A DNA stretch of 61,395 nucleotides from a virus. Its lineage: Duplodnaviria > Caudoviricetes. This document shows, piece by piece, positions 21,483 to 53,665 of this stretch. The stretch lies in the IMG/VR virus record IMGVR_UViG_3300020045_019627, positions 1 through 61,395 of that record; one strand, given 5' to 3'. The first letter of the stretch is position 1, and the number at the start of each line of letters is the position of its first letter. Made by a program: the position numbers and the translations under genes. The notes beneath the pieces are model-generated. The model saw only the letters and a list, made by a program, of their open reading frames with translations, was not told where the DNA came from and searched no databases.

Positions 21483-24413
21483 TTATCCTGTTACGCAATT
21501 GGTTACCGCTGTATAAACTTGTCCTCCTGCTGTGATGCAGAGATATAATGATCCGCTGCCTGCTGGTAATCCTGTGAAGTTCACGTTACCACGTACTGTT
21601 AACGTGTGAGTTGGGGTACTCGTATTAATGCCGACGTACATGACAGGTTGTAGTAAGAGGTTATTTCCTACAACGCTAATATTCGCAGTATTATTAGTGC
21701 CGACACCAACGGTAAGATTAGCACTGATATTAACAATAGTACCGTAGTCTTGAACAACGCTAGTGTTAAGGTGCGTGGCATTATGCCATTTAACCATATA
21801 GTTTGGTAATCCACTACCAGTAATATTGGCGAGGTTACTGGTCCAATAACGATTAGTTCCCTCTGCTATTTGTGTCGTGGTGAGGTTTGTTGTTGCAGCA
21901 TTCAGTCTACTAATATTCGCAGTAGTAATATTTACTTGGTTAAATATTGCGTTAGAGAAGTTTCTAAGGATACTAGCATTTCCCACAGCATCACCGGCTC
22001 TTGTAGAAGTAAAGAACAGATTGCTGGTTTCGGTAAGCTGTGCTGTCGTGAGATTAGTTGTTCCAACGTTAAGTTGACTAATATTTGCAGTTGTAATATT
22101 CGCAGTAGTAACAATAATACTGGAATGATTACGGAGAATTGTACTATTGCCCACCGCATCACCAGCTCGTAAACTAGTGAAGTAAAGATTTATATTTTCA
22201 GTGATTTGCGCAGTGGTGAGATTGGTTGTTCCCACATTGAGCTGACTGATGTTTGCTGTCGTGATATTTGCACGATTGAAAATAACACTAGAGAAGTTTC
22301 TGATAATACTACTATTACCAACAGCATCGCCTGCACGCGTGCTAGTGAAGTAAAGATTGCTTGTCTCAGTGATTTGTCCTGTTGTAAGATTAGTGGTTCC
22401 GACATTGAGCTGACTAATATTCGCAGTTGTAATATTTACTTGGTTAAGGATAACATTCGAAAAGTTTCTAATAATAGTAGAGTTACCGACAGCATCACCA
22501 GCTCTTGTAGAAGTAAAGTAAAGATTAATACCTTCAATAATTTGCGTGGTAGTAAGATTAGTATTCCCGAAATTACCACTGGTAGCATTTACCGTACTAA
22601 AAACAGCATAGGTATTATTGCGAAGAACTGTGCTGTTACTGCTAACAAGTCCGGCAATGATGCTAGTATTACCCAGCCAAATACCTGTGGTACGGTTGAT
22701 ATACTCTAAGGTATTAGTAAGTAATGGATAGTAGTCGGTAAAGGTTGTACTGTTATAATAAGTTTGTGGGTTAGTGTTTCTTGGATAGTAAAGAGTATCA
22801 GTAAGTGTTTGATTGAACGATCCATTCTCTGTATTTGTGTCAATAGCATTAATTGTGATATTCATAATACCTGTGCTGTTCGTCACAATAATACTGCTAA
22901 TATTATTCCCTGCTAGTAAATTCACAATCGTTGCATTCGTGACGTTCTTCTGATATGAAGAATTACTCACCACCCAGAAGTCAAAGCTTCCCCCACCACC
23001 AACACCGCCAGTGGTATCTATTGCGTTGAACGTGCATGTTGTACCTGAACAGTTGATGCTCATATTATTACCCGCGCTCAGTGTGAACGCTCCAGAATCA
23101 GTCACAACCCCTGTAGTTGTACCATTTGTGAAATTCCAATCATAACTGCCCGCACCCGCATTATCATCTCCATCGCAAAGTGCTGCACTGCCAGTTATAG
23201 CAACGCAGTTCGCTTTCAGTACGAGTGCATTAAAAGTTCCCGTTACATTGATATCTCCACTAGCATTGTTAAATGGACTGGTGGTGTTAATCTTTGTCGC
23301 ATTAATTGAATCAATTCTTGCTTGAGCAGTAACGTTCGCAGAATGCAAATTACCAATAGATGTTTGTTGTGCAGAATCGTTATTAGTCAACGTTGTATTC
23401 ACACTCGCGATCCTAGCCTGCACAGTAACATTCGCCGCTTCAAGATTTCCTATAGCGGTTTGTTGTGCACTTGCATTAGTAAATAATGTTCCATTACTGG
23501 AAATGAGTCCATTAATTTGTGCTTGCTGATTCGACGCATTGGTGAAGAGAGTACTATTGCTTGAAAGAAGTCCTCCAAGAATGAGTGCTTGTGCGCTGTC
23601 ATTTGCAGTTAAAGATGTGTTTAAATCTGTAATTCTGGAATCTTCATCATATAATGAAATAGTTGTTTCATTTAGAGTGAGTGTTTGTCCATTATCAGTG
23701 AACCAAGAACTATTCTTGTTTAAATTCGTGCTATTAAGCAATCCAGTGACGTGATTCGCAAGATTCACTAATGCGGCAGTTAACGCTTGACCACTCAATG
23801 AAAGATATGTTACACCAACCAACGTGACGTTCGGTGCACCACCACTTAAACTTGAGAAATTCACATAATTCGGCCTATCGCTGCTCCAATTTGTTAAGCT
23901 ATTAACATAGCCGAATGTTGTATAGGTTGCATTTATTTTTGTTCCATTTATTGTAAGATTCGCGGAAGATCCATTGTTGACAATCACCCAATCATCCAAT
24001 GCTGAAATAGTATTTATTCCTCCACCGCCCCCTCCTGATGTTATCATGCATAAATTACTAGTCGCTCCCGTAATATTGCCACAATAAAGACTCGTTGCAT
24101 TAACGAGTTTTGATGAGTTGAATGATAGAAATATGTCTCCTGATGCACTTCCGTTGTAAATCCAGAAGTTATCTCCTTGTACTCCTGTGATATCTCCACT
24201 CCCAGAAGGAGTGCTGCAATTGAAAGATCCATTTCTCAGCATACCTGATACAAATGAACTACCCGCACAATTGCCCGCAACTGACCAATTAACAATAGTT
24301 TTATTCGGGGCGAGGTCTATATTTCCCGTTGGGCGAAATGGAACGTAGGCTGAGGAAAAGGAGACGAATAAGAGTGCAAAAATTATTGTTAAGAGTGTTG
24401 TTTTTCGAATCAT
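21483..24413 (-). CDS. Secreted fibre-like glycoprotein (976 aa)
   Basis: Signal peptide, coiled-coil repeats, 56-aa repeats with TTxQITExxNLYFTSxRA, C-terminal VGINTSTP fibre motif. Confidence 0.8.
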   Translation of the reverse strand: MIRKTTLLTIIFALLFVSFSSAYVPFRPTGNIDLAPNKTIVNWSVAGNCAGSSFVSGMLRNGSFNCSTPSGSGDITGVQGDNFWIYNGSASGDIFLSFNSSKLVNATSLYCGNITGATSNLCMITSGGGGGGINTISALDDWVIVNNGSSANLTINGTKINATYTTFGYVNSLTNWSSDRPNYVNFSSLSGGAPNVTLVGVTYLSLSGQALTAALVNLANHVTGLLNSTNLNKNSSWFTDNGQTLTLNETTISLYDEDSRITDLNTSLTANDSAQALILGGLLSSNSTLFTNASNQQAQINGLISSNGTLFTNASAQQTAIGNLEAANVTVQARIASVNTTLTNNDSAQQTSIGNLHSANVTAQARIDSINATKINTTSPFNNASGDINVTGTFNALVLKANCVAITGSAALCDGDDNAGAGSYDWNFTNGTTTGVVTDSGAFTLSAGNNMSINCSGTTCTFNAIDTTGGVGGGGSFDFWVVSNSSYQKNVTNATIVNLLAGNNISSIIVTNSTGIMNITINAIDTNTENGSFNQTLTDTLYYPRNTNPQTYYNSTTFTDYYPLLTNTLEYINRTTGIWLGNTSIIAGLVSSNSTVLRNNTYAVFSTVNATSGNFGNTNLTTTQIIEGINLYFTSTRAGDAVGNSTIIRNFSNVILNQVNITTANISQLNVGTTNLTTGQITETSNLYFTSTRAGDAVGNSSIIRNFSSVIFNRANITTANISQLNVGTTNLTTAQITENINLYFTSLRAGDAVGNSTILRNHSSIIVTTANITTANISQLNVGTTNLTTAQLTETSNLFFTSTRAGDAVGNASILRNFSNAIFNQVNITTANISRLNAATTNLTTTQIAEGTNRYWTSNLANITGSGLPNYMVKWHNATHLNTSVVQDYGTIVNISANLTVGVGTNNTANISVVGNNLLLQPVMYVGINTSTPTHTLTVRGNVNFTGLPAGSGSLYLCITAGGQVYTAVTNCVTG
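21830..22570 (-). repeat. Degenerate 168-bp (56-aa) tandem repeat, about 4.5 units
   Basis: NL(Y/F)FTS(T/L)RAGDAVGN recurs at 168-bp spacing. Confidence 0.9.
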
Positions 24414-24424
24414 ACACTGTTCCT

Positions 24425-24664
24425 CTACGAAAACTGTCTCTTTTTCGATTTTTTCAATTTAATTGGCTCAATGACTTTTTCTTCAATGACATTTGCTTGA
24501 ATGATTTGGCCAGGAATCTCAATCATTCTTTTAACAGGTGATTTCTTATACATCATCTCCCAAACTTTTGCTTGTGCTTCAGGAACTTCATCACCGATGT
24601 TATATGGGCCAATCTTTTCCACTGCGATGAATATTGACATGATTACATTCCTCCGAAAATACAT
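24425..24664 (-). CDS. Small head-module protein
   Basis: Downstream of MCP; YNIGDEVPE motif and basic tail. Confidence 0.6.
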   Translation of the reverse strand: MYFRRNVIMSIFIAVEKIGPYNIGDEVPEAQAKVWEMMYKKSPVKRMIEIPGQIIQANVIEEKVIEPIKLKKSKKRQFS

Positions 24665-24689
24665 AAAAAAATAAATAATATTTATTCAT

Positions 24690-24971
24690 TTAATTAATAT
24701 TTGCGAATCGCACCTGAATAGCATATTGGTGATTAGTTGTTCCACCTGCCGCATCAATAGTTAATACGCTACTTGAACTTGTGCAAGTAACACTATCTTC
24801 ACTCGTGACATCCCAGCATTTCGCATCAACGAGTGTTCTTCCTTGTGCGAGGCCAGATACATCCATAGTATCATTGCTATCCATTGATGATGGGGGAAGA
24901 ATAAGAACATCCTCCCATTCACCACTGAATCTTCGTCTTACTTTTGAACTTGCAACTGTAACTGCTGCCAT
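24690..24971 (-). CDS. Putative capsid decoration/cement protein
   Basis: Directly after MCP; GGAGG RBS; resembles the 33169-34186 trio. Confidence 0.6.
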   Translation of the reverse strand: MAAVTVASSKVRRRFSGEWEDVLILPPSSMDSNDTMDVSGLAQGRTLVDAKCWDVTSEDSVTCTSSSSVLTIDAAGGTTNHQYAIQVRFANIN

Positions 24972-25035
24972 AGGGTAATCCTCCTTTTTTTATCATTTGT
25001 GTATAATTAAATAAAATAAAAAAATAAAAAATAAT

Positions 25036-27057
25036 TTAACTCACTGTGTCAAGCATGTGAATCCTTCGTGGACGCTCATATACAACTGCCAGATAGATAC
25101 TGATATATGCTTCGTCTGCTGCGCCAACTTTTGCTAGACCAATGAGTTGTGGAGGTCTGCTGATAACTACGTAGTAGCTCTCAAAGTCAACAACAAATAC
25201 TGCATCTGTTTGTGCACTGCTGTCGACAATTACAAGCACTCCATCGTATCGGATTTCTCCATTAAAGCCGAGTTGTGCACTGTTGTTGAAATATCTTAAG
25301 TTAGTATCTTCTAATTCGAAAACAATATCTCGAACATTCGGATTCACAACGATTCTTAAGTTCTCCCTGAGTGCACCATCGACTTCAACTTTCTTCATTG
25401 CTCCTCTCAAAAGCAAAGTTGTAAGTGCTCCACCCACTGCGTTGTAGGTATCTGAAGCCGTATCGGGCGCAAGTCTATTTGCCGCACTCCTCGTCTTACC
25501 ATATAATGAAGTGTTTCCTGCAGTGTCTGCAACTGCTTCAAGCCCGATGATCTTTGTTCCTGAATCAACTTGCTCAGTAAACAAATCATTGTTGATGTCT
25601 CTCATCAGATCTTTCATTCTTGCCTGTGCCTCGTACATGAACAAATCACCAATCGTTCCTCGACTGTGAAACAAGACGTAATCGGTGACGCTGATGCCAA
25701 CACGGTATTCCTTGATGTCTGTTCGCAATTTGAGTTTATCAACAGGGCGTTTCACAACTGTGGTGTCGTCAGGGTCTACGGAAAGTGTGGTGCTTTGGTC
25801 TGTTTTGATTCTCCAACCATATGTTGCTCCCCCTTCCAAGTGATCTCGCTTTGGCATTGCTCCAAAGAGATTGGTTTGGTTGTTGAATGTATCAACAATA
25901 CCTGGCACAAATAAATCTGCAAACTCTACGATGCTTTCAGTGTATGCTCCTGCATTGGTTGATGTGTCCAACGTGTCTTTTGTTTGAAGTCCACCGACGA
26001 TGCGTAGCTTGTTGCCGTCGCATTTCATCTGCATAGTTGTATGCAGTGCAATGCCTGTGGTTCTCATTTTTTCATCAAGTTGTGGGTTCTCTGAGAAGAA
26101 TCTGCTTGCTGCCTCTTTGAATGACAAAACGTCATTTTTCTTGAGTGCGTCTTTCATCTCCTTCACAGAAAGCGATGCTGTTGTCGTTTCCATGTTTTGC
26201 TCCTCCTTAGTTTCTTTTAATACCTTACTTTTTATTTGTAATTGAGTTATTTTCTCATCAATAATACTTTTAAATTCTTTACTTTCAAATATCTCTTTGA
26301 AATTAAGTATTGGTTCTTCTTTCTTTTCCTTAGCCTCAATTGAAGGCATCACTGTTTCTGTAACTGCTGCAACTGCTTCTTGTGCCTCAGTTATATTAGT
26401 AGTTGAAACAGAAGTTGTTTCAATCAATACTTCTTTTTCTTCAGTCATTGTGTTCTCCTCCAATATTGCAGCCTCTATTTCTTTATAAATAACTGCGTGT
26501 GGGTTTGCGATCATTCTTGGTCTGGCAAAACCTAATCCGCCGAACTCGGTGAGTGTATCAATAAATCTATAATTTTGTCCATTGTATGACTTTTGACGAG
26601 AATGATTTTCATCAGTTCCGTATTCAATACTAAGTCCTGCTATTCCTCCTTGTTGGATACGATATTCTATTTCTTCAGGAGTCATTTTATCTTCTTTGTA
26701 AAACTTATTCACTTCAAATTCAACCTCTGCACCCCAATGACCATCAGGAAGTTGAACAACTTTCGCAGTTGGCAAAAGATATGCTGCTTCATCAAGTGTC
26801 GGATCTTTTTCGTGAATCCAATCGTGGAAGAGACTGATGCCACGATAGCTTCCTTGTTCTCCTCCAGCAACATTTTCTTTATTGATAAATGTGCAAATTT
26901 GTTCGATTGCTTGTTTACTCAGTATGTCTCCAACTCTATCAGGGTGTGTTGTTGCTGCAATGCCAACATAATGTCCATTTTCTTTCTTCTGGAGATTACA
27001 AATAGAAATGCGTTCTTTCAGTTCATTTTTATTAAGTATTTTTGACATAAGGATCAA
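25036..27057 (-). CDS. Fused prohead protease-scaffold-HK97-fold major capsid protein
   Basis: N-terminal DRVGDIL, SLFHD and GLSIEY protease motifs; acidic linker; C-terminal MCP-like domain; follows portal. Confidence 0.85.
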   Translation of the reverse strand: MILMSKILNKNELKERISICNLQKKENGHYVGIAATTHPDRVGDILSKQAIEQICTFINKENVAGGEQGSYRGISLFHDWIHEKDPTLDEAAYLLPTAKVVQLPDGHWGAEVEFEVNKFYKEDKMTPEEIEYRIQQGGIAGLSIEYGTDENHSRQKSYNGQNYRFIDTLTEFGGLGFARPRMIANPHAVIYKEIEAAILEENTMTEEKEVLIETTSVSTTNITEAQEAVAAVTETVMPSIEAKEKKEEPILNFKEIFESKEFKSIIDEKITQLQIKSKVLKETKEEQNMETTTASLSVKEMKDALKKNDVLSFKEAASRFFSENPQLDEKMRTTGIALHTTMQMKCDGNKLRIVGGLQTKDTLDTSTNAGAYTESIVEFADLFVPGIVDTFNNQTNLFGAMPKRDHLEGGATYGWRIKTDQSTTLSVDPDDTTVVKRPVDKLKLRTDIKEYRVGISVTDYVLFHSRGTIGDLFMYEAQARMKDLMRDINNDLFTEQVDSGTKIIGLEAVADTAGNTSLYGKTRSAANRLAPDTASDTYNAVGGALTTLLLRGAMKKVEVDGALRENLRIVVNPNVRDIVFELEDTNLRYFNNSAQLGFNGEIRYDGVLVIVDSSAQTDAVFVVDFESYYVVISRPPQLIGLAKVGAADEAYISIYLAVVYERPRRIHMLDTVS

Positions 27058-28526
27058 GGATTGTATAATGCTTCATTATTACCTTTTGAATTAGCAACAT
27101 TTCTTTTCGTGTTTGCTCTTGTTCGATTATCAGGTTCTTTCATCACTGATTGGTTATCGAGTCTGTTCTGCCCATTGGTGTTATTTTCTAAGTCAATTCC
27201 AATAGTCATATCTAGTTCTTCAACGTCTTCAGGAACGAATCCTAACAATTCTACTGTTTTGTCTGCTTTTAATTGTTTCCCTTGTTTTGCTAAGATTGTT
27301 TGGTATTTACTCACCGTATCTGCAATAGTATTCGCAGTTTGTGCTTCTCGCACTTCATCTTGCTTATACTTTCTACAGAATTTAATGTGCCAGCCCATCG
27401 GGCCGAACACTTGTCCATTAAGCAAATCTTCAATAGTGTCTTGGAAATCACTAATGCGATTCCAATATCCTGATTCACTCAATCCCCCACTATCTCCTTT
27501 CGTAGCACTGTTGCCAATGAGATATGGAATTCTACTCACAGGAATACCAAAGCTAAAAGCGAAATTACTGGTGATGTAGAGTGCAAGGTCTTTATATTCA
27601 AGATCTTTAGGCATTCCTTGAAGATCTTTCACATCAACTTCTCCTGTGAACACGAGACTGCCGTGACGATTTTCCACTGATTTATATTTGCGAAGCGTTT
27701 CAATGAGTAATTTATGATTCTTGCTTCTTGCAAGCTCTTTTGGCAAAATGAACATCTTATCAGGACTACCTCCATTTCGCATGAATGAAAGCATGTTCCC
27801 CTTCACAAGCCAAAGTAATGTCACTTCTGATGCAAGTGATTCAACGGGGCTAAATCCCTGCACCATGCCATTAATGGTCATGTAACGAAAATGAACAATC
27901 TCTTGTGTATCGAACTCAATTCTTCGACCATTGGAATTTTGCTCATAATACAGAATATCATATTCATCGTTAACAATAGTTACGGTGCTTGAAGCGATAT
28001 AATCTATTTTCTTAGTTCTTGTTTGAACTTCATCCTCTATCTTCTCTTTCATCTCTTGCATTTCTTTTGTACTAAGAAACGTCGCATATTTAGAGGTGAT
28101 TTCTTTAATCATCTTATCTTTTTGCTGTTTGTTGGCTTCAGGATTCCAGAGAAAACCATCGCCAGTGAGGAAACCATCGTGCAACCAAGAACGCACCACT
28201 TCTTTTCCTCGTTGTTGTCGCCAAAACCGTTCTGCTTGCAATCGTTTGTTGCGACCAAGTGGGGAACCATCAGTGGAAATCCACTCTGGCCGATCCCCAA
28301 GGATGTCTGTGATAGGTATTCCTAGTGTAGCAACAAGTTCAGGTGTTTGTTTAAACCATTGCCAGAATCTTCGATAATTTGTTCCGAAATTAGATGCTCT
28401 ACTTCCAGCCACTCCTATGGGAATTGCGTTGAAAAGAGGACGATGCTCACTCGTTTTGTTCGTCCTGCTCGTCATAAATTGTGTTATTTGGATGACCATG
28501 ATTTTCTCTACGTACTGCTGCGACAA
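27054..28526 (-). CDS. Portal protein
   Basis: EIVHFRY...GFSPVESL, FMRNGGSP, FGIPVSRI. Confidence 0.92.
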   Translation of the reverse strand: MSQQYVEKIMVIQITQFMTSRTNKTSEHRPLFNAIPIGVAGSRASNFGTNYRRFWQWFKQTPELVATLGIPITDILGDRPEWISTDGSPLGRNKRLQAERFWRQQRGKEVVRSWLHDGFLTGDGFLWNPEANKQQKDKMIKEITSKYATFLSTKEMQEMKEKIEDEVQTRTKKIDYIASSTVTIVNDEYDILYYEQNSNGRRIEFDTQEIVHFRYMTINGMVQGFSPVESLASEVTLLWLVKGNMLSFMRNGGSPDKMFILPKELARSKNHKLLIETLRKYKSVENRHGSLVFTGEVDVKDLQGMPKDLEYKDLALYITSNFAFSFGIPVSRIPYLIGNSATKGDSGGLSESGYWNRISDFQDTIEDLLNGQVFGPMGWHIKFCRKYKQDEVREAQTANTIADTVSKYQTILAKQGKQLKADKTVELLGFVPEDVEELDMTIGIDLENNTNGQNRLDNQSVMKEPDNRTRANTKRNVANSKGNNEALYNP

Positions 28527-29308: not shown

Positions 29309-30898
29309 CTAAACAATGCCTAGTGTGTCTTCAATCTCATTACCACAATTAGGACACTCATCATCATTACGTTCAAGTGGTGCACCACACTCCTCACAAG
29401 CATTCTTGTCATACTTCTCAAATCCAACAATTGTGGCAGTCACTGGTGGACTGTCGGGTTGAACAGCAATTGAAATGAGGCCACATAAGCAATCGCAAAA
29501 GTCATCTCTATCACTTTCACGCTCGTGATGTATTTTGAGATAACTCCTCTCACTTCTCTTGAATCGGAGTTGTGCCAATTGTTCATCACAGGATTGGATA
29601 TACGGTATTTTTAAAGCTTTCTCTCCCTTAATATTTCGTTCTGCAAGGAGTTTAAACATTCCATACATTCGACTCTTATTTTCAAGAGAATATTCAACTG
29701 GTAAACATAAAATGCCGAAGTTTTCTATCCTCTTGATGAAGTCTTCTATGCCTCTTCCAACCCCTGTGTTATCCCATCCAACCGCAGCTATGTTGTTCCA
29801 ACCAAGCGAATTCACAAGATCAATAAGATCTTGAAGAATATCATTGTACGGTGTGCCTTCAGGATATTCCAATAACTCATAAACATATAGTCCTGGTTTC
29901 TCATCACTACCACTTGGAACACCGATGCCTCTCACTGTTCGGTCTTTTGATTTTGCAAAATCAAAAAAGATATACACAGGTTGGGGAAGAAGTAAAGGGA
30001 GTTCATTTTCTCTCTCTTCTTGCATTGCGCGACGTTCTTCAAGTGTAAAATATGCTCCTTCCGCGTCAGTAAATATTGCATCCAACGTGCTTTCTCGTTC
30101 TGCCCTATTCAATGATTTAACATGACGGGTATATTCTTTTAATGTGTTAATTGGACAATCCAAAAAAGTGAAACGAAATCTCTCGAAATCATCGTTGTTG
30201 TATAACTCCCAAAACACTCCGATTCGTCCATTTGGGTTTGATAAACAAAGAACATCACCTTTTGTTGCAAAAGTAGTTGGCAACAGGACTTGATAATACA
30301 AGTATCTTGAGTCTTCGTAGAATCCCAGCTCATCAAGTATTAACAAATTAACACTATATCCTAGACTCGCCTCTGTTGCAGGCACACAAATAATTCTACT
30401 TTGTCGTAATTCAATCACAGATCCGTCTTCCAATGTTTCGTGGTGCGTGAAATAAATCTCTCCTTTGTTTTCACTATCACCGACATTTGCTTTGTAGTCA
30501 AGAATACTGCTGTTCAAAATTTCTTTAATCTCTCTTAAGAAATTCTTTGCTTGGGGCAAAGTCTTTGACACAACCATAATAGTTGATCCTGGCTCCGTTA
30601 ATGCTGAATGTAATGCTTTAACCTGCCCTGTTCTTGATTTTCCTATTTGTCTTGCTGCTGCAAATATTGTGCGATCATGTTTACAATTCAATATTGCATC
30701 TTGATAATAGAACATCTTCATCGGCTCGCCAGTTTTTTCTCTGAAAAACGCATATGCGTAAATAGTTGGGTCACGCAATAATCCTGCCGCCTCATTGGTT
30801 GCAACGCCTCCAGATGTAACAACATCATCCCATTTCGAGAACTTTGCAAGAAGAGCTTCTTGCATTAATTCTTTCTCTTTATTAGTGTGCTCAATCAT
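29309..30898 (-). CDS. terL: Terminase large subunit with C-terminal Zn ribbon
   Basis: AARQIGKS Walker A, LLILDE Walker B, SNPNG, FFDFAKSKD, WDNTGVG, DDFCD. Confidence 0.95.
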   Translation of the reverse strand: MIEHTNKEKELMQEALLAKFSKWDDVVTSGGVATNEAAGLLRDPTIYAYAFFREKTGEPMKMFYYQDAILNCKHDRTIFAAARQIGKSRTGQVKALHSALTEPGSTIMVVSKTLPQAKNFLREIKEILNSSILDYKANVGDSENKGEIYFTHHETLEDGSVIELRQSRIICVPATEASLGYSVNLLILDELGFYEDSRYLYYQVLLPTTFATKGDVLCLSNPNGRIGVFWELYNNDDFERFRFTFLDCPINTLKEYTRHVKSLNRAERESTLDAIFTDAEGAYFTLEERRAMQEERENELPLLLPQPVYIFFDFAKSKDRTVRGIGVPSGSDEKPGLYVYELLEYPEGTPYNDILQDLIDLVNSLGWNNIAAVGWDNTGVGRGIEDFIKRIENFGILCLPVEYSLENKSRMYGMFKLLAERNIKGEKALKIPYIQSCDEQLAQLRFKRSERSYLKIHHERESDRDDFCDCLCGLISIAVQPDSPPVTATIVGFEKYDKNACEECGAPLERNDDECPNCGNEIEDTLGIV

Positions 30899-31310
30899 TT
30901 TTCACGGCAGCAGCATCATAAACTTGAGAATATTGTTGTGCATGTTTTCTAATGAGCTGGCTAATGTGATCGTGGCTAACTTTGTGAAGGTGTAAATTTA
31001 CACTCTTCTCCCCATATAAATTCTTGTGCAATTTATCGATGAGCTCATTGTAGAGCTCAATGAATCGTCTCGTGCTTTCTTTTATCACTTTTGATTCTCT
31101 AATATCCTCAGCAATGCGCTCATCAAGATATAATTTTATCTTCGCAGCCATCTCCTTCTGTCGCTCAACAGGTTTATCAAAAAGTTCAATAATCTCTTGT
31201 GCTGCTTGTGACGCATTCATAACAGGAATTTCAAGCTCATTTTTCTTCTGTTCCTTCACTTTCTCAAGCGCTTGCTCAATGGTTGCAAAGTCAACAATAT
31301 CCATCGTCAA
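30891..31310 (-). CDS. Putative terminase small subunit
   Basis: Helical 139 aa directly upstream of and overlapping terL. Confidence 0.55.
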   Translation of the reverse strand: MTMDIVDFATIEQALEKVKEQKKNELEIPVMNASQAAQEIIELFDKPVERQKEMAAKIKLYLDERIAEDIRESKVIKESTRRFIELYNELIDKLHKNLYGEKSVNLHLHKVSHDHISQLIRKHAQQYSQVYDAAAVKND

Positions 31311-32176
31311 TTAACTCGCCCCACCACTTTTGAAGGATAACTCAAGTCAATAGCTTGCTCGATAAACATGTTTTGATCCATGGTAAAGAATCCTTGATCT
31401 CCCCAATACTTTCCCCAAGAGTTCATTAAGAGAAAAGTATTTTGCGCATCATCATATCCAACAATGACAACTGCATGATGGAATTGCGCCACTTCATTTT
31501 GTTGAGGAGCATACTGATTATTTTCCAAAGAGTGAATGCTTTGTGTTATTGGTAGAACAACAACTATTGGCCATTGTTTTGTATATAACACCTCTTTAAT
31601 TGCATCCTTCTTCACCTCTTTTTTGCCAGTGATAAAAAGATATTCAAAATCAGGATAAAGATGACGGAATAGGATGCTGGTGAATGTTGGTTGCTTGTTG
31701 AATTGTTCTTCAATGTAGGGAAATGTAGCTTCAACACTTATCCCTCCTTCTTGTGATTTATCTTGCGCCACTTTCCAAAAATCTCGCACATACATTCCTT
31801 TATTTTCAGGATATGTCTTGCTTTTCTTTCTTCCTTTATTCCAAGCATCCATTTTGCTGAGTTCTGGAAAGTTTGTTGCTCCTATTCTTCTTGCAAAGGT
31901 TTCGAGTGTGGTGCATCCTGCACAAGCAACACAAGAATTATATGTTCCTTGATCTTCAACAGTACTGAGTTGCGGAGTGCCTCGCAAAGAGAATTGTTTT
32001 GGAATAGTTACTACTCCTGCAAGTGCAGAATGTTTGAAGTCTCGCTTGTCTTTTGGTGATTTGAGCGCACCTGCTCCTCGTTGTAGTTCTGTTGACCAAC
32101 TAAGCTTCGATTGTTTCTTCAAAAAGAAGCGCAACGTCTTCAAGAGAAATAATCGTATTGATGCAGTTGATGCCAT
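31307..32176 (-). CDS. Papain-like C1 cysteine peptidase
   Basis: DQGTYNSCVA, HAVVIVGYDD, NSWGKYWGDQGFF. Confidence 0.93.
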   Translation of the reverse strand: MASTASIRLFLLKTLRFFLKKQSKLSWSTELQRGAGALKSPKDKRDFKHSALAGVVTIPKQFSLRGTPQLSTVEDQGTYNSCVACAGCTTLETFARRIGATNFPELSKMDAWNKGRKKSKTYPENKGMYVRDFWKVAQDKSQEGGISVEATFPYIEEQFNKQPTFTSILFRHLYPDFEYLFITGKKEVKKDAIKEVLYTKQWPIVVVLPITQSIHSLENNQYAPQQNEVAQFHHAVVIVGYDDAQNTFLLMNSWGKYWGDQGFFTMDQNMFIEQAIDLSYPSKVVGRVN

Positions 32177-32671: not shown

Positions 32672-33172
32672 TTACTTTGCGCTGACGACAAAACGGAAGG
32701 AATTATTGATATTGGTTCCAAATTCTTGTGATCCTTTGATATTTAATCGCATGTAACGGAAACTTTTATCACTCACATCAAGACGAGTAAGATTATTAAC
32801 ACAACGGATGTTTCCACCACTGCCATTTATCCAGATGCGATTGTCAGGGCTAACTTCATATTGTATGGTGGTGATGTTGGTGACATTGAGATTTTTTGCA
32901 AAACCACTGCAATTAATCCAAAGCGTATATTCTGTGAACTTACCTAAATCAATAATGCTTGTTGTTTGGTTACTGAAGTTCAAGAGTGTTTGTGCATCAC
33001 CTGTCAGTGTGCCTGTACTTACAACGAACGGAGCAACAAATGTTACATCAGTATTTCCACTAGCAAGTGATGGAGAAGACGTTTCTTTTTGAAAGAAAAG
33101 TGCAATACTTGTTATGATTGAAAGCAAAACTAATATCGCTAAACTTATGTTGATGATGTTGCGTTGTTTCAT
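32672..33172 (-). CDS. Membrane-anchored beta-sandwich protein (spike-base-like)
   Basis: N-terminal TM; IQYEVSPDNRIW...FRYMRL; many sequons. Confidence 0.55.
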   Translation of the reverse strand: MKQRNIINISLAILVLLSIITSIALFFQKETSSPSLASGNTDVTFVAPFVVSTGTLTGDAQTLLNFSNQTTSIIDLGKFTEYTLWINCSGFAKNLNVTNITTIQYEVSPDNRIWINGSGGNIRCVNNLTRLDVSDKSFRYMRLNIKGSQEFGTNINNSFRFVVSAK

Positions 33173-39667: not shown

Positions 39668-39913
39668 GTGATTCACATGAAAGATAGAAGAAACAAGTTG
39701 GAAGTGATTGCGAATAATTTAGACGTCATTAGTAAAAATATTCATCGTTATAATAATCACATCGAAGTGTTGAGAGTGGTGGAGAAAAAGCGAGAATTAT
39801 TGGAGGATGAATTCCTCCATATCCTGCAATTAGAAAGATTAACTGGCTACAGCGAGACTTATGCTCTCTATCATAATTGGTATAAGCAGTACAAAGGGGT
39901 AGAAGAACTATGA
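39668..39913 (+). CDS. Hypothetical protein, homologue of 3974-4210
   Basis: Identical last 29 aa. Confidence 0.8.
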   Translation: MIHMKDRRNKLEVIANNLDVISKNIHRYNNHIEVLRVVEKKRELLEDEFLHILQLERLTGYSETYALYHNWYKQYKGVEEL

Positions 39914-40074
39914 AGTCGGAGTTGAGTGATGTGATTGATAAATTGTATGGTATGAATGCTTATATTAGTGCTCATTTTGTGACTCGATTACATAAGCCCA
40001 CGTTTACGGATATGGATTCTATCAATAAGAACTTAGGGATAATTATCAAAGAACTAAGAGAACTGCAAAAATGA
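39910..40074 (+). CDS. Hypothetical protein (54 aa)
   Basis: Hand-translated; ATGA overlaps at both ends. Confidence 0.55.
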   Translation: MKSELSDVIDKLYGMNAYISAHFVTRLHKPTFTDMDSINKNLGIIIKELRELQK

Positions 40075-40644: not shown

Positions 40645-40797
40645 ATGACAACCAAGCTCTTGTCTGATGAGTTGAAAGCAAAGATAGAGACTGCTTGTCA
40701 TACTGCTGGTGAACCTGATTGGGACGGTGAGAATTGGGTTGATATGCACTGGAAACAATTAGCTGAATACATCATAAGAGAGGTTGAAAAAGAATGA
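40645..40797 (+). CDS. 50-aa protein identical to 2519-2665 apart from the N-terminal MTT
   Basis: GGAG RBS; shared 146-bp block. Confidence 0.8.
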   Translation: MTTKLLSDELKAKIETACHTAGEPDWDGENWVDMHWKQLAEYIIREVEKE

Positions 40798-40799
40798 AG
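40654..40799 (+). repeat. 146-bp exact repeat, inverted relative to 2517-2662
   Basis: Base-by-base identity. Confidence 0.97.
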
Positions 40800-41992: not shown

Positions 41993-42053
41993 TCGTCGAT
42001 ATACCCCAAATAATAGGTAGGGGTCATTGTTTGCAAATAACGGAGGTCACAGT
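41993..42053 (+). promoter_or_regulatory. Conserved site upstream of resolvase (candidate res/operator)
   Basis: Homologous to 2267-2328. Confidence 0.6.
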
Positions 42054-42551
42054 TTGAGAATCGCATTATACGCAAGAGTCAGTAAAGCATTAGGTCAGAA
42101 TCCAGAAAATCAACTATTGGAACTGCGGAAGTGGGCGGTCAGTGCACAGCATGAAGTTATTGGCGAGTTTGTTGATGAAATCACAAGCAAAGATACCAGA
42201 CCAGAGAAAGAGCGCGTGTTGAGGAAGATGCGCCTTAATGAGGTTGATGGTGTTGCCTTTTGGTGTTTGGATAGGTGGGGTAGGACTGCTTCGGAGTTGA
42301 TCTTTGAGCTTGAGGAGTTTAGCCAGAACGGAAAAGCTTTGGTGAGCTTGAAGGAAGGAATTGATCTTAGTACTGCGGCTGGAAGGTTGATGGCGAATAT
42401 GTTGGCGATCATGGCGAACTTTGAAAGAGACAGGATTCGGGAAAGGACTCTTTTAGGTTTGGCCAGAGCTAAGGCGCAAGGTAAGAAACTGGGCAGACCC
42501 TTCAAAAATAAACCCCCCCTGCAAACCCTCGGGTTTCTGTCCTCGGTGTAA
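42054..42551 (+). CDS. Small serine recombinase (resolvase/invertase family)
   Basis: YARVSK, LDRWGR, FERDRIRERT, GKKLGRP; TTG start after GGAGG. Confidence 0.95.
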   Translation: MRIALYARVSKALGQNPENQLLELRKWAVSAQHEVIGEFVDEITSKDTRPEKERVLRKMRLNEVDGVAFWCLDRWGRTASELIFELEEFSQNGKALVSLKEGIDLSTAAGRLMANMLAIMANFERDRIRERTLLGLARAKAQGKKLGRPFKNKPPLQTLGFLSSV

Positions 42552-48604: not shown

Positions 48605-49030
48605 TCATGGTAGTTTTTTCAATAATTGGTTGAAATGAACATGTAATTCTTTTCTCTTCTGAATGTCGTGGGTGAGTGCTCGTTCTGCAAGTTGTTTGGT
48701 TGTTAAAAGCCACTTAAGAAATGCAGCAGTTTCTTTACAATAAGGATTCACATCTTTATAGTTCCCCCCGTGTCCAATGACTAAATGGCATAAAATAGTC
48801 TTCTTTCCTTCACACAATGCGATGAGATTCGACTTTTTCAACTCAAGCGTGGGATTCGCATGGAAAGGAATAATGTGGTGTGCTTCAAGACTTTTCTTTC
48901 CTCCACACACCGCACACACCTTCCCAAGTAAAAATTGCTTTCTTATTCTTGACCATTGTGGATGTCGCACATGCCCCTTTGTTTTCTCAAGCACTTCCAA
49001 CTTCTTTTGAGGGTTCATTCTTTGAGCCAA
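48605..49030 (-). CDS. HNH endonuclease
   Basis: CAVCG...EAHHIIP...NLIALC...CH. Confidence 0.9.
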   Translation of the reverse strand: MAQRMNPQKKLEVLEKTKGHVRHPQWSRIRKQFLLGKVCAVCGGKKSLEAHHIIPFHANPTLELKKSNLIALCEGKKTILCHLVIGHGGNYKDVNPYCKETAAFLKWLLTTKQLAERALTHDIQKRKELHVHFNQLLKKLP

Positions 49031-49266
49031 AAGTCAATTGCATCAAGGGTGAATTTTGTTCCTGCTGCGACGAGTGCAGAGGTGAGGCCATTGAGTGTTG
49101 GATTCGACACTATGTTCACTCCATATGCTGCAAACGCAAGTATGGCTGCAATCACAAGTTTCAATGCTTCTTTATTTCCCATTAAAAAAGCCTTGAATTT
49201 GTACCCCTTAAAACTGTATTTCTGAGTCATTGGTTCTGCCGAAGCAGCAAGTTTCTTGTTCGTCAT
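49015..49266 (-). CDS. Small membrane protein, holin-like
   Basis: Two hydrophobic helices at the end of the late operon. Confidence 0.5.
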   Translation of the reverse strand: MTNKKLAASAEPMTQKYSFKGYKFKAFLMGNKEALKLVIAAILAFAAYGVNIVSNPTLNGLTSALVAAGTKFTLDAIDFWLKE

Positions 49267-49286: not shown

Positions 49287-50756
49287 CTATTCTTTGTCAT
49301 ACATGATATTAATGCTATCTATTTGTGTATCTGCATTTGAAAAAGTGACTTTTAACGCTAAACTCGTTCCTGCTGCAGAGCTAATGGTGTGCAGTGTTCT
49401 TGGAACTATTAATTCATAAGAAATCCCCCCATTTGCACTAATAAAGAATGAAGCACCTGTTAGTGTTTCCCCAATTGGAAGCAAATATATGTCTGTGATA
49501 TTTGAATTTGCAGGAGTTGCACCACTTGTCCAAGTGCCATTTGTTGTTGTTGGTTTAAGCACCCCATTAATTATTTGCGTTGATGAGTGAATCCCTTCAT
49601 CTGAGTCGAATAAGAACACCTTACCATTATCTAAATCATAAGGATTATTGCTCGTTTCTGTTCTTAAACTTTCTATTTCAACTCGCTGCTTCATTAAGTG
49701 CGTCATACGAATAGTTTCTCGTTCGACACTCACAACTGTCATGGGAGTGCTATCCCCATCTCTGTCAAATGATTGTTCGAAAGAGATGATGCGATAGTAT
49801 TGAGGGGGAAGATTATTTGCCGGATCACTGAGTAGAAGATTCTCTCCAGGTTGCAATGTGGCAAGCATAATGCTCGATATTTCGCCAACTTTCGGAGGAA
49901 TCTTCTTTTCTGCGAGAACAAAATCTGCCTTTTCTTGTGCTTGAGCAGTAATTTCAACGCTATCATCTTGTATAATTAAGTTCCTCTCACCATATGCGGT
50001 GATGCTGGTTTGATCTTTTGCCGTTGCAAATACTTGCACACCATCAATTGTTGCTCCAATCACTCTTATTTTATTCTTAACTTGTAGCAAGTCATCGGCA
50101 AAATCAGATACTTCAAAAATATTATATTCATGCACCATAGCATCAGTTGTGTTTCGCACCGTGTTTTTCTCGAAAAATCGCGCACCACTCGATGCATCAA
50201 TATAGAAATCAGCCCCAACGAGTTCACAAATCTCTTGTATTGCTTGAAAAAATGGTTTTTGATTAAAATTAAGTGATATGTTTGTTCCATATGGATTCGT
50301 GACATTTGTTGTTGTGAATCTACCTCCTCCGTATGTTGTGATGATGTCAATAATAACTGCTCCTGCATCTTGAGATATATATACTTCATTCACATTTTTT
50401 TCCATAAGAAAGAGCGCTTCACTTCTGCCAGAAACAACAACATTATTATCGCGGTATGCTATTTTCTCACATCTTCCTAGAAAACGAATGGTCGTTGCAG
50501 TTGTCGCATAATCACAATAATATTTGAACACCTCCATCCCCGTCCAGATACTTGTGTAATTTTCAGATACATTCGGGATACTGAATTCAAAATTACCTAT
50601 GCTATCGGTAACACCATCTTTCAATTTAAATGATGCAATATTTGTAATATCATCAACAGTTCCATCTGCTCTAGTGACAGTTAATTTAAAAAGTGCTGAA
50701 TAAGTGGGGGGAACCCAAACATGTGTATCAATACCCCCGATGTTGCGTACTGCCAT
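49287..50756 (-). CDS. Baseplate hub/tail tip protein
   Basis: ICELVGADFYID, VKNKIRVIG, SITAYGER; position after Dit. Confidence 0.8.
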   Translation of the reverse strand: MAVRNIGGIDTHVWVPPTYSALFKLTVTRADGTVDDITNIASFKLKDGVTDSIGNFEFSIPNVSENYTSIWTGMEVFKYYCDYATTATTIRFLGRCEKIAYRDNNVVVSGRSEALFLMEKNVNEVYISQDAGAVIIDIITTYGGGRFTTTNVTNPYGTNISLNFNQKPFFQAIQEICELVGADFYIDASSGARFFEKNTVRNTTDAMVHEYNIFEVSDFADDLLQVKNKIRVIGATIDGVQVFATAKDQTSITAYGERNLIIQDDSVEITAQAQEKADFVLAEKKIPPKVGEISSIMLATLQPGENLLLSDPANNLPPQYYRIISFEQSFDRDGDSTPMTVVSVERETIRMTHLMKQRVEIESLRTETSNNPYDLDNGKVFLFDSDEGIHSSTQIINGVLKPTTTNGTWTSGATPANSNITDIYLLPIGETLTGASFFISANGGISYELIVPRTLHTISSAAGTSLALKVTFSNADTQIDSINIMYDKE

Positions 50757-50762
50757 AAGTCC

Positions 50763-53288
50763 TCAAGTTGTTGCATTACTACATATTGTTTCTTCTGCGC
50801 AAGCGCGTAAATATATTTTTGGTTTAAGCAATCTCCATCCAGTTGTACTGTTGCAAGAGTAATCCGCGAAAAGAAAAATATTGTGTGGTTGTAAATACGT
50901 TATATTATTGCTGAGATACGTCCAATTTGTTGGTGTGAGTAATATTTTCAATGTTGAGTTTGAAGAGTTTCCTGCGCTGATATTCACACAAGACATTGAC
51001 TCATTGATATAGATGCTAAAATTGTAGTTTTTTCCCCCATATGCCAAGTTATTCATCTTAAATATCGCGGTGTTTGTTGTTTGACCAAAAGGAGTTATGT
51101 TTTTTGAAGTAGGAGTTTTTGGGATAAATTCTAAGAATGACACGAATCGTGGGAAAGAAAAATTCCATCTACTGTGGTGATATGTTACAGCTATACTTTT
51201 ATTATATACGTAGTCCGAAGTGTGGGCAATTATTTGAATGGTGTTGTTTCCACCAGCATATTTATAACTTATATTTTTTAATTCTATTGTTCCATTTTCA
51301 GAACTGGTAAACGTTATAGGAATAGTTGTTGTATTTCTGCTTCCATTTAAAAAAGCTTCAACAATTGTTCTTGAAATAACAACAGGATTTATATTAAAAT
51401 CATATTGTAATTTCAATCCAGTGATATTAATTGTTCCTCCGGTGCTATAGACATACATAGGAACATTACAGTACCCTTCACTGTCTTCAGTACATTCATT
51501 GAGAAATGTCATAATCTTTCCTGAAAAGTTATTACTTCTATTGTTACTGACATTAAATGTACTTGTGTAATTCCAATCTTTTGATCCATTGATAACTCCC
51601 ACTTCCATCCAAGGATCTAGTGGAGCAATATTCCAATACATCGCATCTTCATATACAATGATTCTATCTGAACAAGCAGAACTGCACCAATCATTGTATG
51701 TTCCAGTGTATTGCGCTCCGGTAGTATATAATCCATCATAAAGAACACTGACTAAGGCTTGTCCTGATGGGTAAGATGGACTACATGATGCCGTTGGAGT
51801 GCAACCACTTGTTGCCGCACTTAATAATGTGTGCCACGCAGTGCCGTTATAACATGAATACACAACACTTCCTGTACCGGATGTTATTTTTGTTAACATT
51901 TTTGTTTCATTGTAATTCCAACACGATGCGGAAAATGAGAGATTAGTGTATGAATTGGTTCCGGCATTGTTATAATAGACTTGCCAAACACTATTGTTCG
52001 AAGCACTCGATGGTTTTGTATAATTTTGCAGCACCTCATTGCTTGATTGGCTTGAGCTAATATTGTTGGCTGTTTCTTGAAGTGAATAATCACTACTTCC
52101 TGTGAAATTGACATAAGAAGATGTCATATTGGCATTCTTAGGTAATCTAAAATATCCAATTATTCGCGTTTCAGATAGGATGAAGACTGATGATTTGTTT
52201 AAATCTGTATCATTAAATGAATTGAGTTCTCCAGAAGTGATATTTTGTAATAAACCTATATTGTTTGAAAGTGTTCCGTTGACATAAATCTTAACATTTG
52301 TTGGAAAGTTTGTTCCCCCTTTGTGTCCAAGAATGCTGATCTTCAAGCTATCAACTTCATCGAATTGATGAGCACTAATATTAATCGTTTGATTTCGGGT
52401 GCTATTTACACTAAGATTTCTTGTTATGTTGCCATCATGTAATATACTTCTTTCGAAGAAAGAAATATTGAATGACAAAAATGTGCTGAGGTTGGCACAA
52501 GTATAATTGATCCCATAGGAAGGATGAATAATATCTATACACACAACTCCTAGATTATTTGTCGCATTCAATGAAAGAGGACTATTCAACTCTGCACTGA
52601 TGTTTTGAAATGCACCTTGAATAGTTATGTTTACTGTGGTATTTGTACTACTTGCCACTCCGCAATAAGTATCGCAAATAGTGAAATTTCTTATAGTTGT
52701 ATTTTCTCCAATAGAATTGCCATGATAAAAAAAAGCAGTGAATAAATTACCAGTTCTTGCACTGACATTATGTGTGCCGTTTTCAGGATTCAACACTCCA
52801 TCAACATACATCTTCACATTATTGTTCGATGCTGTTGCATTCCACCAAAGAGTAATAGTATGATTACCAACACTTCTTGCAGCTTGTGCAGGGATGGTGC
52901 AGCCAGTTAAGTTGGAGTAAAAACCATATGAGTTGAAATTAGTGTTACATGTACCTATAGATAATCCTGCACCGTATTGATCGAGTGCTGTGTCGTTGGT
53001 AAACCCAATAAATAGATTCTTGCCTGCACTGTATGACACACCAGTATCTTCATATATGAAGGTCAAATTATATGTTGTTGTATTAAAAATTCTTGTTGTG
53101 TAGTTGAAAGTTCCGTTATTAATAGAATTAGTTAATAGACTTATGTTCTGTCCGTTATATGCAAGCATTGTTCCATTGAAATCTTGGTTAACTGTTCCAT
53201 TGGGAAAACGATATAACACGTCTCCTGGTACCGATAGAACTAATTGCACGATGAAGAGTAACAAAATAACAAGAAGAATCTTCTTCAC
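50763..53288 (-). CDS. Secreted glycoprotein inside the tail module (841 aa)
   Basis: Signal peptide, LamG-like KMYVDG, very dense sequons, Cys pairs. Confidence 0.75.
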   Translation of the reverse strand: MKKILLVILLLFIVQLVLSVPGDVLYRFPNGTVNQDFNGTMLAYNGQNISLLTNSINNGTFNYTTRIFNTTTYNLTFIYEDTGVSYSAGKNLFIGFTNDTALDQYGAGLSIGTCNTNFNSYGFYSNLTGCTIPAQAARSVGNHTITLWWNATASNNNVKMYVDGVLNPENGTHNVSARTGNLFTAFFYHGNSIGENTTIRNFTICDTYCGVASSTNTTVNITIQGAFQNISAELNSPLSLNATNNLGVVCIDIIHPSYGINYTCANLSTFLSFNISFFERSILHDGNITRNLSVNSTRNQTINISAHQFDEVDSLKISILGHKGGTNFPTNVKIYVNGTLSNNIGLLQNITSGELNSFNDTDLNKSSVFILSETRIIGYFRLPKNANMTSSYVNFTGSSDYSLQETANNISSSQSSNEVLQNYTKPSSASNNSVWQVYYNNAGTNSYTNLSFSASCWNYNETKMLTKITSGTGSVVYSCYNGTAWHTLLSAATSGCTPTASCSPSYPSGQALVSVLYDGLYTTGAQYTGTYNDWCSSACSDRIIVYEDAMYWNIAPLDPWMEVGVINGSKDWNYTSTFNVSNNRSNNFSGKIMTFLNECTEDSEGYCNVPMYVYSTGGTINITGLKLQYDFNINPVVISRTIVEAFLNGSRNTTTIPITFTSSENGTIELKNISYKYAGGNNTIQIIAHTSDYVYNKSIAVTYHHSRWNFSFPRFVSFLEFIPKTPTSKNITPFGQTTNTAIFKMNNLAYGGKNYNFSIYINESMSCVNISAGNSSNSTLKILLTPTNWTYLSNNITYLQPHNIFLFADYSCNSTTGWRLLKPKIYLRACAEETICSNATT

Positions 53289-53665
53289 GATACCACCTCT
53301 GTTTTAAGAAAGTTACCACTTATCCCCGTACTCAAATGTTTCTGGAAAATATGTCCATTATTATTCAAAATAGAATAAGCATCACCCTTGCGTATTTTTG
53401 AAACTCCTTCTCCAGTATATTCAACACTTTCAACAATGCCAGACGTTACAATATTGTTATCAATATCTCTTATTTCAAATTTTGTTATCGTTGTGCCATT
53501 CGCATATTTCGTATCGTTGGAGAGTATGAGTGAATATGCTTGACTTTCAAGGACATCTCCCGCAGGAGTTCTGACAACAACATCTGCTCCAGTTGGTGCA
53601 GTTGAATTTTGTGTACATGCACTAAGAAGAATAAGAACAAAAAAGAAATATAAACTCTTGTTCAT
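53285..53665 (-). CDS. Predicted lipoprotein
   Basis: Lipobox LSAC after a hydrophobic stretch. Confidence 0.65.
   Translation of the reverse strand: MNKSLYFFFVLILLSACTQNSTAPTGADVVVRTPAGDVLESQAYSLILSNDTKYANGTTITKFEIRDIDNNIVTSGIVESVEYTGEGVSKIRKGDAYSILNNNGHIFQKHLSTGISGNFLKTEVVS

Follow-up and report, generated by a model that had tools for sequence, protein, structure and literature searches.

Export-type N-termini and a directional sequon excess in a tail-tip protein family of tailed, probably archaeal viruses: a possible glycosylated fibre that joins the virion outside the cytoplasm

The assembly of tailed viruses is regarded as an entirely cytoplasmic process, and N-glycosylation in archaea, which is carried out by AglB, takes place only on the outer face of the membrane. 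The nearest described counterpart of the system treated here is the tail tip of Haloferax tailed virus 1 (HFTV1; Haloferuviridae), for which the structural report assigns gp40 as the tape measure, gp41 as the baseplate-tail connector, gp42 as a trimeric tail fibre (with a base that leads into a beta-helix, then a stalk and then a head) and gp44 as the hub, with the fibres anchored at the hub N-terminus (10.1101/2024.12.09.627619). We analysed a whole IMG/VR virus record (IMGVR_UViG_3300020045_019627; 61395 nt, without end repeats; referred to as the window below) that encodes a tailed HK97-type virus, and concentrated on an 841-residue protein, gp841 (50763-53288, minus strand), which occupies the slot of gp42 and is predicted to be an exported, N-glycosylated tail-tip protein. 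A preliminary description of the same DNA had noted signal peptides and dense N-x-S/T sequons in several large proteins, and had proposed that exported fibres are attached to virions at or after egress, or else that the virus remodels the host surface.

Other known systems resemble parts of this locus. The llp gene of T5 lies beside pb5 and the cor gene of phi80 beside tail-fibre genes, the Cor of N15 being alike, and Llp and Cor block the outer-membrane receptor in Gram-negative bacteria. The window likewise holds, within its tail-tip gene block, a small ORF (open reading frame) for a predicted lipoprotein (126 aa; 53285-53665, minus strand), but its neighbour is itself predicted to be exported and family searches gave no match. 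The VP4-type spikes of pleolipoviruses carry a signal peptide, are N-glycosylated and mediate host recognition, and they are acquired together with the membrane; one further protein of the window, gp891, shares with them the presence of C-terminal membrane segments, whereas a tailed HK97-type virion has no membrane and would need a separate docking step. Finally, the Acidianus two-tailed virus, the tails of which develop outside the host, is a precedent for extracellular maturation of an archaeal virion, although it belongs to an unrelated lineage and rearranges the particle's own proteins rather than adding a secreted glycoprotein. A full-text literature search (supplements and most subscription journals being outside its scope) turned up neither the gp841 family nor any account of fibres that are exported or N-glycosylated in head-tailed archaeal viruses.

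In the GenBank record of HFTV1 the genes are ordered gp40-gp41-gp42-gp43-gp44, i.e. tape measure, connector, fibre, small ORF and hub. The window shows a similar arrangement, in which a 428-aa tape measure protein (54060-55346, minus strand; phrog_58, E 2.6e-16) is followed by a 133-aa Dit-like (distal tail or baseplate-tail connector) protein (53662-54063, minus strand), the 126-aa lipoprotein, gp841 and a 489-aa baseplate hub (49287-50756, minus strand; gp27/Mu gp44/HFTV1 gp44-like; phrog_1887 tail protein), which places gp841 after the putative distal tail connector and before the hub. The Dit-like protein was named from its position directly after the tape measure gene, where BLAST homologues are found in 10 related loci; PHROG and Pfam gave no match for it. 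The lipoprotein gene shares 4 nt with each of its neighbours, its start with the stop of the Dit-like gene and its stop with the start of gp841, and the hub gene begins 6 nt after the end of gp841, which leaves no room for a separate transcription unit for gp841 or the lipoprotein. Judged from these overlaps, gp841 appears to be translationally coupled to the Dit-like and hub genes, and the pair differs from a moron, which would have its own promoter and terminator.

The likeness to HFTV1 thus comprises gene order, a common hub fold and the hub N-terminus as the attachment point (solved for HFTV1, modelled here). The differences concern the fibre itself: gp42 has 443 aa, no hydrophobic N-terminus and a sequon count at expectation (6 vs 4.5 expected), as has the HFTV1 hub (11 vs 10.2), whereas the gp841 family combines an export signal with an about 2.6-fold sequon excess. 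Between gp841 and gp42 neither sequence nor fold similarity was detected, and gp841 is modelled to attach via its C-terminal end, unlike the base-to-head build of gp42. Since the slot is the same and gp42 lacks both signal and excess, the group to which the window belongs seems to have replaced a cytoplasmic fibre by an export-type, sequon-rich protein.

Signal peptides and anchors were predicted from hydrophobicity, n/h/c anatomy and inspection. By these measures Sec-type signals or anchors are present in each sequon-rich ORF of the window except the 5'-truncated gp540+: one to three basic residues are followed by 19-24 uncharged, mostly hydrophobic residues. For gp841 this is MKK plus 19 uncharged residues (predicted signal peptide at residues 1-19), for gp976 MIRK plus 22 uncharged residues ending in SSA before a Y, for gp891 MKK plus 24 residues ending in SIA before an A, and for gp744 MYNKK plus 20 residues that include a Cys. 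In gp166, MKQR plus 24 residues form an anchor in which a cleavage site is not obvious; a pilin-type (class III) signal peptide was considered for this protein and rejected by sequence inspection alone. The preliminary description had attributed signal or anchor and dense sequons to proteins of 976, 914, 841 and 166 aa. Shuffles and N-termini bear this out for the 976-, 841- and 166-aa proteins, whereas a 914-aa ORF does not exist in the window, even when read from stop to stop; as the N-terminal 374 residues of gp744 and the 540 residues of an ORF at the contig end add up to 914, the two had probably been joined.

Sequons (N-x-S/T, x not Pro) were counted in 68 ORFs, and each count was compared with 1000 composition-preserving shuffles of the protein's own residues. 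Six ORFs hold 2.3-2.7 times the shuffle mean (z 3.3-10.1), namely gp976 (80 vs 34.0±4.7), gp841 (62 vs 23.3±4.1), gp744 (48 vs 18.6±3.6), gp891 (46 vs 20.1±3.8), gp540+ (32 vs 12.1±2.8) and gp166 (9 vs 3.7±1.6; 1 of 1000 shuffles as high). The major capsid protein (MCP; 5 vs 4.4), the tail tube (2 vs 1.0), the hub (7 vs 5.4) and the portal are near expectation, so that the sequon density noted in the preliminary description is higher than Asn, Ser and Thr content predicts, unlike that of the structural controls. The adaptor-like protein, too, has 4 sequons vs 3.8 expected despite 24% Ser+Thr, and the 126-aa lipoprotein has a non-significant 4 vs 2.0. Only N-x-S/T read forwards is enriched: S/T-x-N, N-S/T and N-x-x-S/T stay within |z| ≤ 2.7 in these six proteins, and beta-strand periodicity or composition therefore cannot explain the excess. 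Between 50 and 63% of all Asn residues lie inside sequons in the six proteins, vs 3-33% in 11 cytoplasmic proteins. Bacterial PglB-type sequons require D/E at position -2, unlike the sequons seen here, which show no such preference (D/E at -2 in 4.3% of 277 sequons vs 5.5% background). A directional excess of this kind, combined with the position-conserved sequons described below and no preference at -2, is the pattern that selection for archaeal N-glycosylation would leave.

The association between the two features was assessed in 129 ORFs of at least 200 aa from 17 non-redundant related loci (L005, L010, L018 and L019, which duplicate L013 and L009, were dropped, as was L022, i.e. HFTV1). 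A sequon z above 4 was reached by 12 of the 24 ORFs with a hydrophobic N-terminus vs 1 of the 105 without, and this lone ORF is a gp841 homologue that is 5'-truncated by the locus edge. Sequon excess thus tracks the export signal.

No Pfam, PHROG or NCBIfam family matched gp841, gp976, gp744, gp166 or the lipoprotein above cut-off. For gp841 an Atlas search gave scores below 0.9 and a word-index search returned two homologues only, while a relative found via its MCP (L005) has, directly after the Dit-like gene, an ORF of at least 1148 aa that is unrelated to the hub and 35-40% identical to two parts of gp841. A four-sequence gp841 alignment, in which Cys 599, 607, 767 and 836 are invariant, was then used as IMG/VR query and yielded 16 loci, the ORFs of which were re-called and compared by BLAST with the window proteins. 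The gp841 homologues in these loci have 813-1915 aa and sequon z-scores of 6.7-10.9, and all complete N-termini (15/15) contain a hydrophobic stretch, followed in most cases by small residues. A hub homologue (23-44% identity) comes immediately after the gp841 homologue in 15 of the 16 loci, the 16th ending within the gene. A homologue of the 133-aa Dit-like protein precedes the gp841 homologue in 7 of the 16; elsewhere the preceding tail genes are too divergent to match. Most loci show no further recognisable fibre gene downstream of the hub.

By an exhaustive profile search the family grew to 2269 representatives of clusters at E ≤ 1e-3; 1514 of these pass ≤ 1e-10 and 707 pass ≤ 1e-30, and the proteins range from about 650 to 3500 aa. 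Sequon and N-terminus statistics were compiled for the best 148 of the 2269 representatives, 144 of which start with M. The forward sequon z exceeds 4 in all 148 (median about 9, observed/expected 2.6), whereas the reverse-motif z does so in none, and a hydrophobic 15-mer lies within the first 65 residues of 134 of the 144. Two of the remaining 10 are borderline; the others begin where the family continues after the hydrophobic stretch and are probably truncated gene calls. A fibre assembled in the cytoplasm, as in HFTV1, would show no export signal, and in this the gp841 family is different.

The conserved core of the family matches no Pfam model but carries variable modules (among 16 members, LamG in 4, DUF2341 in 2, Kelch in 1 and Big_7 in 1), an architecture that would be expected of a receptor-binding protein. 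Sequon positions are kept across 16 homologues although identity is only 21-37%: N730 in 16/16, N769 in 14/16 and N337, N681 and N762 in 13/16 each. Domain 555-841 of gp841 taken alone has 23 sequons vs 7.4±2.3, with 0 of 2000 shuffles as high. In many family members (P0111-P0148; L011, L014-L017) a conserved basic stretch of 15-25 residues, absent from the window's gp841, stands ahead of the hydrophobic segment (e.g. M-A-K-R-V/I-Y ... K-K-W-A or M-G-N-K-R-I-Y-L-G). The n-regions of signal peptides are not usually sequence-conserved, so that this stretch may have a cytoplasmic-side function of its own. As a separate observation, the tail modules of relatives with gp841 homologues contain ORFs of which the N-termini resemble, by eye, family-2 glycosyltransferases (L006, 567-1211 and 5467-6228; L014, 1851-2594; L020, 2309-3049).

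The protein that follows gp841 was modelled (AF2, with 12 homologues) at a mean pLDDT (predicted local distance difference test) of 82. Foldseek matched it best with 9h4p_BD, the baseplate hub of the solved HFTV1 tail (E 1.2e-20), and next with Mu gp44, the MuSo2 43-kDa protein, T4 gp27 and VgrG, and it is therefore a true hub. Residues 3-18 form an arm that is disordered in the monomer model but carries the motif hydrophobic-W/F/P-I/V-P-P/K in 13 of 13 hubs; in the window's hub it reads V-W-V-P-P, at residues 13-17. For gp841 an AF2 model based on the 16-sequence alignment has confident beta-sandwich domains at 215-400 and 555-841. When the hub and these two domains were modelled together as three chains with custom alignments, a set-up that differs from the one used to calibrate the tool, the complex scored 0.71 (runs 0.72, 0.71 and 0.71) vs 0.00 for the best of 3 controls; 58 of 80 solved complexes attain the 0.71 mark, as do 2 of 110 mismatched pairs. 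At least 79% of contacts are common to the runs, the partner pLDDT is at least 79, and hub residues 3-18 are placed against gp841 residues 705-726 and 808-830 in the C-terminal domain. The model thus predicts that the C-terminal domain of gp841, rich in sequons, is where the hub N-terminal arm docks.

Our preferred reading, to which we give roughly one chance in two, is that gp841 is a Sec-exported, N-glycosylated tail fibre that joins the virion at or after lysis, meaning that part of the adsorption apparatus would be made as secretory glycoproteins. We infer the following sequence of events. gp841 would first be exported via Sec and lose its signal peptide, and would then be glycosylated at many N-x-S/T sites by the host oligosaccharyltransferase outside the membrane. 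It would be retained near the cell on the outer side of the membrane, and the cytoplasm would meanwhile be the site of head and tail assembly, hub included. At lysis its conserved C-terminal domain would capture the conserved N-terminal arm of each hub subunit on the fibreless tails, i.e. at the attachment point used by the HFTV1 tail fibre, and the variable, lectin-rich remainder would be left free for host recognition. The part of the preliminary description that had fibres exported and attached at or after egress thereby receives in silico support for gp841, from its slot, its apparent coupling, the signals and sequons of its family and the hub model. It is classical phage knowledge that finished particles can receive fibres in vitro, and a hub-attached tail fibre is known as well; a secretory, glycosylated make-up would be new, as would a tailed virus that relies on fibre addition outside the cell, and we see a real chance that a new assembly step is involved.

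A wider version of this reading, which we advance more tentatively, would have virion completion take place outside the cytoplasm in a large and widespread group of HK97-type tailed viruses of archaea: the secreted and heavily N-glycosylated fibre would clip to the hub arm after lysis, and gp976 and gp744, as neck or head fibres, would take the same route together with a helper lipoprotein. Should it be true, the host's own glycosylation machinery would coat the receptor-binding organ of the virus. The occurrence, in the fibre slot, of a family of more than 2000 clusters with an export signal and a sequon excess implies either an extracellular last assembly step or a heavy investment in the host surface. 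Whichever holds, it has a bearing on host recognition by archaeal head-tailed viruses, on their exit from the cell and on how virus-encoded 'adhesins' in metagenomes are to be read. A concrete contact is also proposed in the residues named above.

Several points weigh against the preferred reading. The synteny count for gp841 and hub is biased because the 16 loci were found with a gp841 query; in the MCP-seeded set only one of the three relatives in which the region is visible (L005) has a gp841 gene, and in L002 and L003 the Dit-like gene is followed by a different tip protein. The gp841 model has a mean pLDDT of 61 with 355 residues below 50, its fold matches (Foldseek, VIA) are generic Ig/PKD/CBM sandwiches only (Z ≤ 9.8, TM < 0.1), and it does not support a trimeric fibre shape. 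The complex model, apart from its departure from the calibration set-up, may remember the solved HFTV1 tail. Furthermore, N769 and the invariant N730 lie at or beside the modelled interface, and a glycan at either site could hinder the hub contact. The docking domain is sequon-rich while the hub has no export signal, so that the two would sit in different compartments until lysis, and to our knowledge no tailed virus adds its fibres after lysis in this manner. gp976, gp744, gp166 and the lipoprotein have no homologues in 21 related loci (BLAST), so that the comparative evidence does not extend to them. Against sequences in the PDB, gp841 gave no meaningful match at E ≤ 1.

The strongest alternative, which we nevertheless regard as unlikely, is that the exported glycoproteins are not part of the virion but remain on or under the host surface layer, where they would mask receptors, exclude superinfection, protect progeny from re-adsorption to debris or alter cell-cell adhesion, and that their genes adjoin the hub and adaptor genes through co-evolution with receptor-binding parts, as for llp of T5 and cor of phi80. 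Export signals and sequon excess would place the proteins among host surface proteins, and the genes in the slot between MCP and adaptor vary between relatives, being missing in L003, L005 and L007, as accessory cargo would. gp976, gp744, gp166 and the lipoprotein are moreover orphans, and a small lipobox lipoprotein beside a tail-tip gene resembles Llp and Cor in size and place. A host-adhesion role has also been put forward, in part of a report on viruses from alkane-oxidising cultures, for a signal-peptide protein (PMC13452462). This explanation leaves several properties of gp841 unaccounted for, namely its apparent translational coupling to late tail genes, its retention beside the hub in nearly all loci, the large proteins of which its family consists across all 2269 representatives and its modelled position on the very hub arm that holds the HFTV1 fibre, and as no other fibre is evident in most loci, the hub would have to perform recognition alone. 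It thus fits gp841 less well than gp976, gp744, gp166 and the lipoprotein, for which nothing separates a virion fibre from host-surface remodelling, the alternative already raised in the preliminary description.

The lipoprotein itself has the lipobox that had been claimed for it (L-S-A-C in LLSAC, residues 14-17) and stands directly beside the putative receptor-binding gene, the position held by Llp and Cor. It is an orphan, found in this virus only among the loci examined (BLAST, L001-L021), with no Pfam or PHROG match and Atlas scores below 0.9. Its role may be to help or anchor gp841 outside the cytoplasm, or else to mask the receptor.

An involvement in egress, whereby late-secreted proteins would loosen or breach the surface layer, possibly together with a papain-family cysteine peptidase encoded in the head and packaging block (31307-32176, minus strand; Peptidase_C1, E 8e-16), strikes us as improbable. 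Expression would be late, since the genes are coupled to structural genes, CBM-like and Ig-like folds could bind surface glycans, and the peptidase is a candidate for degradation of the surface layer at entry or exit. A role of this type is conceivable because, according to passages of a 2024 review, the egress players of head-tailed archaeal viruses are uncharacterised (PMC10791045). However, family searches found no hydrolase or lyase domain in gp841, gp976 or gp744, the conserved hub adjacency and the modelled hub contact are left unexplained, and the variable lectin modules look like determinants of specificity.

That these are ordinary cytoplasmic fibres, in which the hydrophobic stretch is no export signal and N-x-S/T a by-product of Asn/Ser/Thr-rich beta structure, is very improbable: it would make the compartment problem vanish, an abundance of Asn, Ser and Thr is frequent in tail fibres and the signal peptides were judged here from hydrophobicity and inspection, but reversed and shifted motifs are not enriched, the excess is confined almost entirely to ORFs with hydrophobic N-termini, the HFTV1 fibre and hub are at expectation, basic-then-hydrophobic N-termini prevail among the family representatives, and the four invariant cysteines fit an oxidising outside compartment.

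Regarding the other predicted exported proteins, we infer their roles along the same lines, and gp976 and gp744/gp540+, in the slot upstream of the adaptor gene, would most simply be head or neck fibres made in the same way as gp841. gp976 (21483-24413, minus strand; three genes downstream of MCP) is a predicted fibre-like exported glycoprotein with a coiled-coil-like region, and its C-terminal half contains four tandem units of 168 nt (56 aa; 21838-22575; 63-72% identity) with several sequons each. Its only homologues are P0259 (903 aa, with YadA_head repeats) and P0260 (1466 aa); the N-termini of both are signal-like, and a motif with a Cys is common to all three proteins. gp744 (19224-21458, minus strand), a predicted exported glycoprotein with a possible lipobox, lies nearby; the gaps at gp976 and gp744 are 11 and 24 nt. 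Its paralogue gp540+ (59771-61393, minus strand), 5'-truncated by the contig end, lies upstream of both a 77-aa ORF and the adaptor-like gene. Identity is 86% between residues 375-492 of gp744 and the opening 118 residues of gp540+ (window positions 19998-20297 and 61055-61354), and beyond this stretch the two diverge. The similarity starts exactly at the contig end, which suggests that the assembly broke at the repeat, and the shared stretch resembles an alternative C-terminal cassette of a fibre gene. When the contig ends are joined as a circle, stop codons lie upstream of gp540+, which speaks neither for nor against circularity.

gp166 (32672-33172, minus strand), a predicted N-terminal signal-anchor protein with a weak DUF6385 match below cut-off, has a start that overlaps the stop of the third of three paralogous genes of 105-109 aa; kinship with the neighbouring 109-aa paralogue was considered and the two are unrelated. 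gp891 (8961-11636, minus strand), outside the range covered by the preliminary description, combines a predicted signal peptide and a LamG/ConA-like lectin domain (Laminin_G_3, E 4.9e-18) with three C-terminal membrane segments at 805, 831 and 864.

The 471-aa adaptor-like protein (58103-59518, minus strand; phrog_4406 and phrog_11439) is encoded by the first gene of the neck and tail block, has homologues in 9 loci and lacks an export signal. Upstream of its gene, exported-looking ORFs are found in L004 (373, 836, 92 (lipobox) and 306 aa), L008 (236 and 317 aa), L011 (575 and 130 aa) and L015 (625 aa), as well as in L002 (106 aa, an anchor protein with z 5.0) and, in all likelihood, L001 (at least 585 aa); they are absent in L003, L005/L013 and L007. 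Given this recurrence in several loci, the slot is a recurrent place for exported, fibre-like cargo. Two small ORFs with one hydrophobic segment were noted, one of 83 aa after the hub (49015-49266, minus strand) and the above-mentioned one of 77 aa before the adaptor-like gene (59541-59774, minus strand), the C-terminus of which is hydrophobic; comparable small membrane ORFs come after the hub in L007, L011, L012, L015 and L020, and these may be holin-like proteins.

The remaining virion and packaging genes include those for TerL, the terminase large subunit (29309-30898), the portal (27054-28526), a Neck1-type protein (57031-57534) and a 673-aa fusion of prohead protease and MCP of the HK97 fold family (25036-27057, minus strand; Pfam SU10_MCP, PF17236, E 1.1e-9), for which 106 MCP homologues were found. 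The labels 'Dit' and 'adaptor' derive from gene position and weak PHROG matches. IMG/VR scans with a single MCP or a single hub protein as query gave nothing and alignment-based scans gave relatives; by tblastn the MCP had no match among GenBank phages and the portal only distant bacterial phage matches. Scans with the MCP and gp841 alignments detected no provirus in species-representative prokaryotic genomes (one per species), and so gave nothing that bears on the symbiotic host mentioned in the preliminary description. In a DNA run labelled freshwater metagenome, 6% of the sampled words matched and two short fragments were obtained, neither of which informs on the contig end; no RNA run was listed among the matches. 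The host is probably archaeal, as indicated by indirect hints: Halogranum virus HGTV-1 is the best tblastn match of TerL, there is a weak MCM P-loop match in the window, HFTV1 gives the best fold match of the hub, and the sequon statistics point the same way.

A perfect inverted repeat of 146 nt (2517-2662 and 40654-40799) bounds a segment of 38 kb. Each arm adjoins a small serine recombinase (1775-2266, minus strand, and 42027-42551, plus strand; 31% identical) and a homologous gene of 78/81 aa (3974-4210, minus strand, and 39668-39913, plus strand), and a second repeat of 208 nt, 72% complementary, is present at 3973-4180 and 39707-39914. The arrangement could reflect one large segment able to invert, a pair of related recombination modules, or chimerism of the assembly. 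The MCP relatives are often found on contigs of 35-46 kb, compared with 61 kb here, and the extra ~19 kb corresponds to positions 1-19000. This block encodes a P4-family primase (5326-7203; TIGR01613), several small membrane proteins, gp891, a secreted zincin-like protein of 120 aa (11633-11995) and an ORF of 1433 aa without family match. Except for weak matches of gp891, none of them was matched in the 21 related loci, and the block may be an inserted mobile element. The 1433-aa ORF (12587-16888, minus strand) is rich in Gln, Ser, Thr and Pro, contains no Cys and is depleted in sequons (2 vs 11.3±3.1 expected), only 3% of its Asn residues lying in such motifs.

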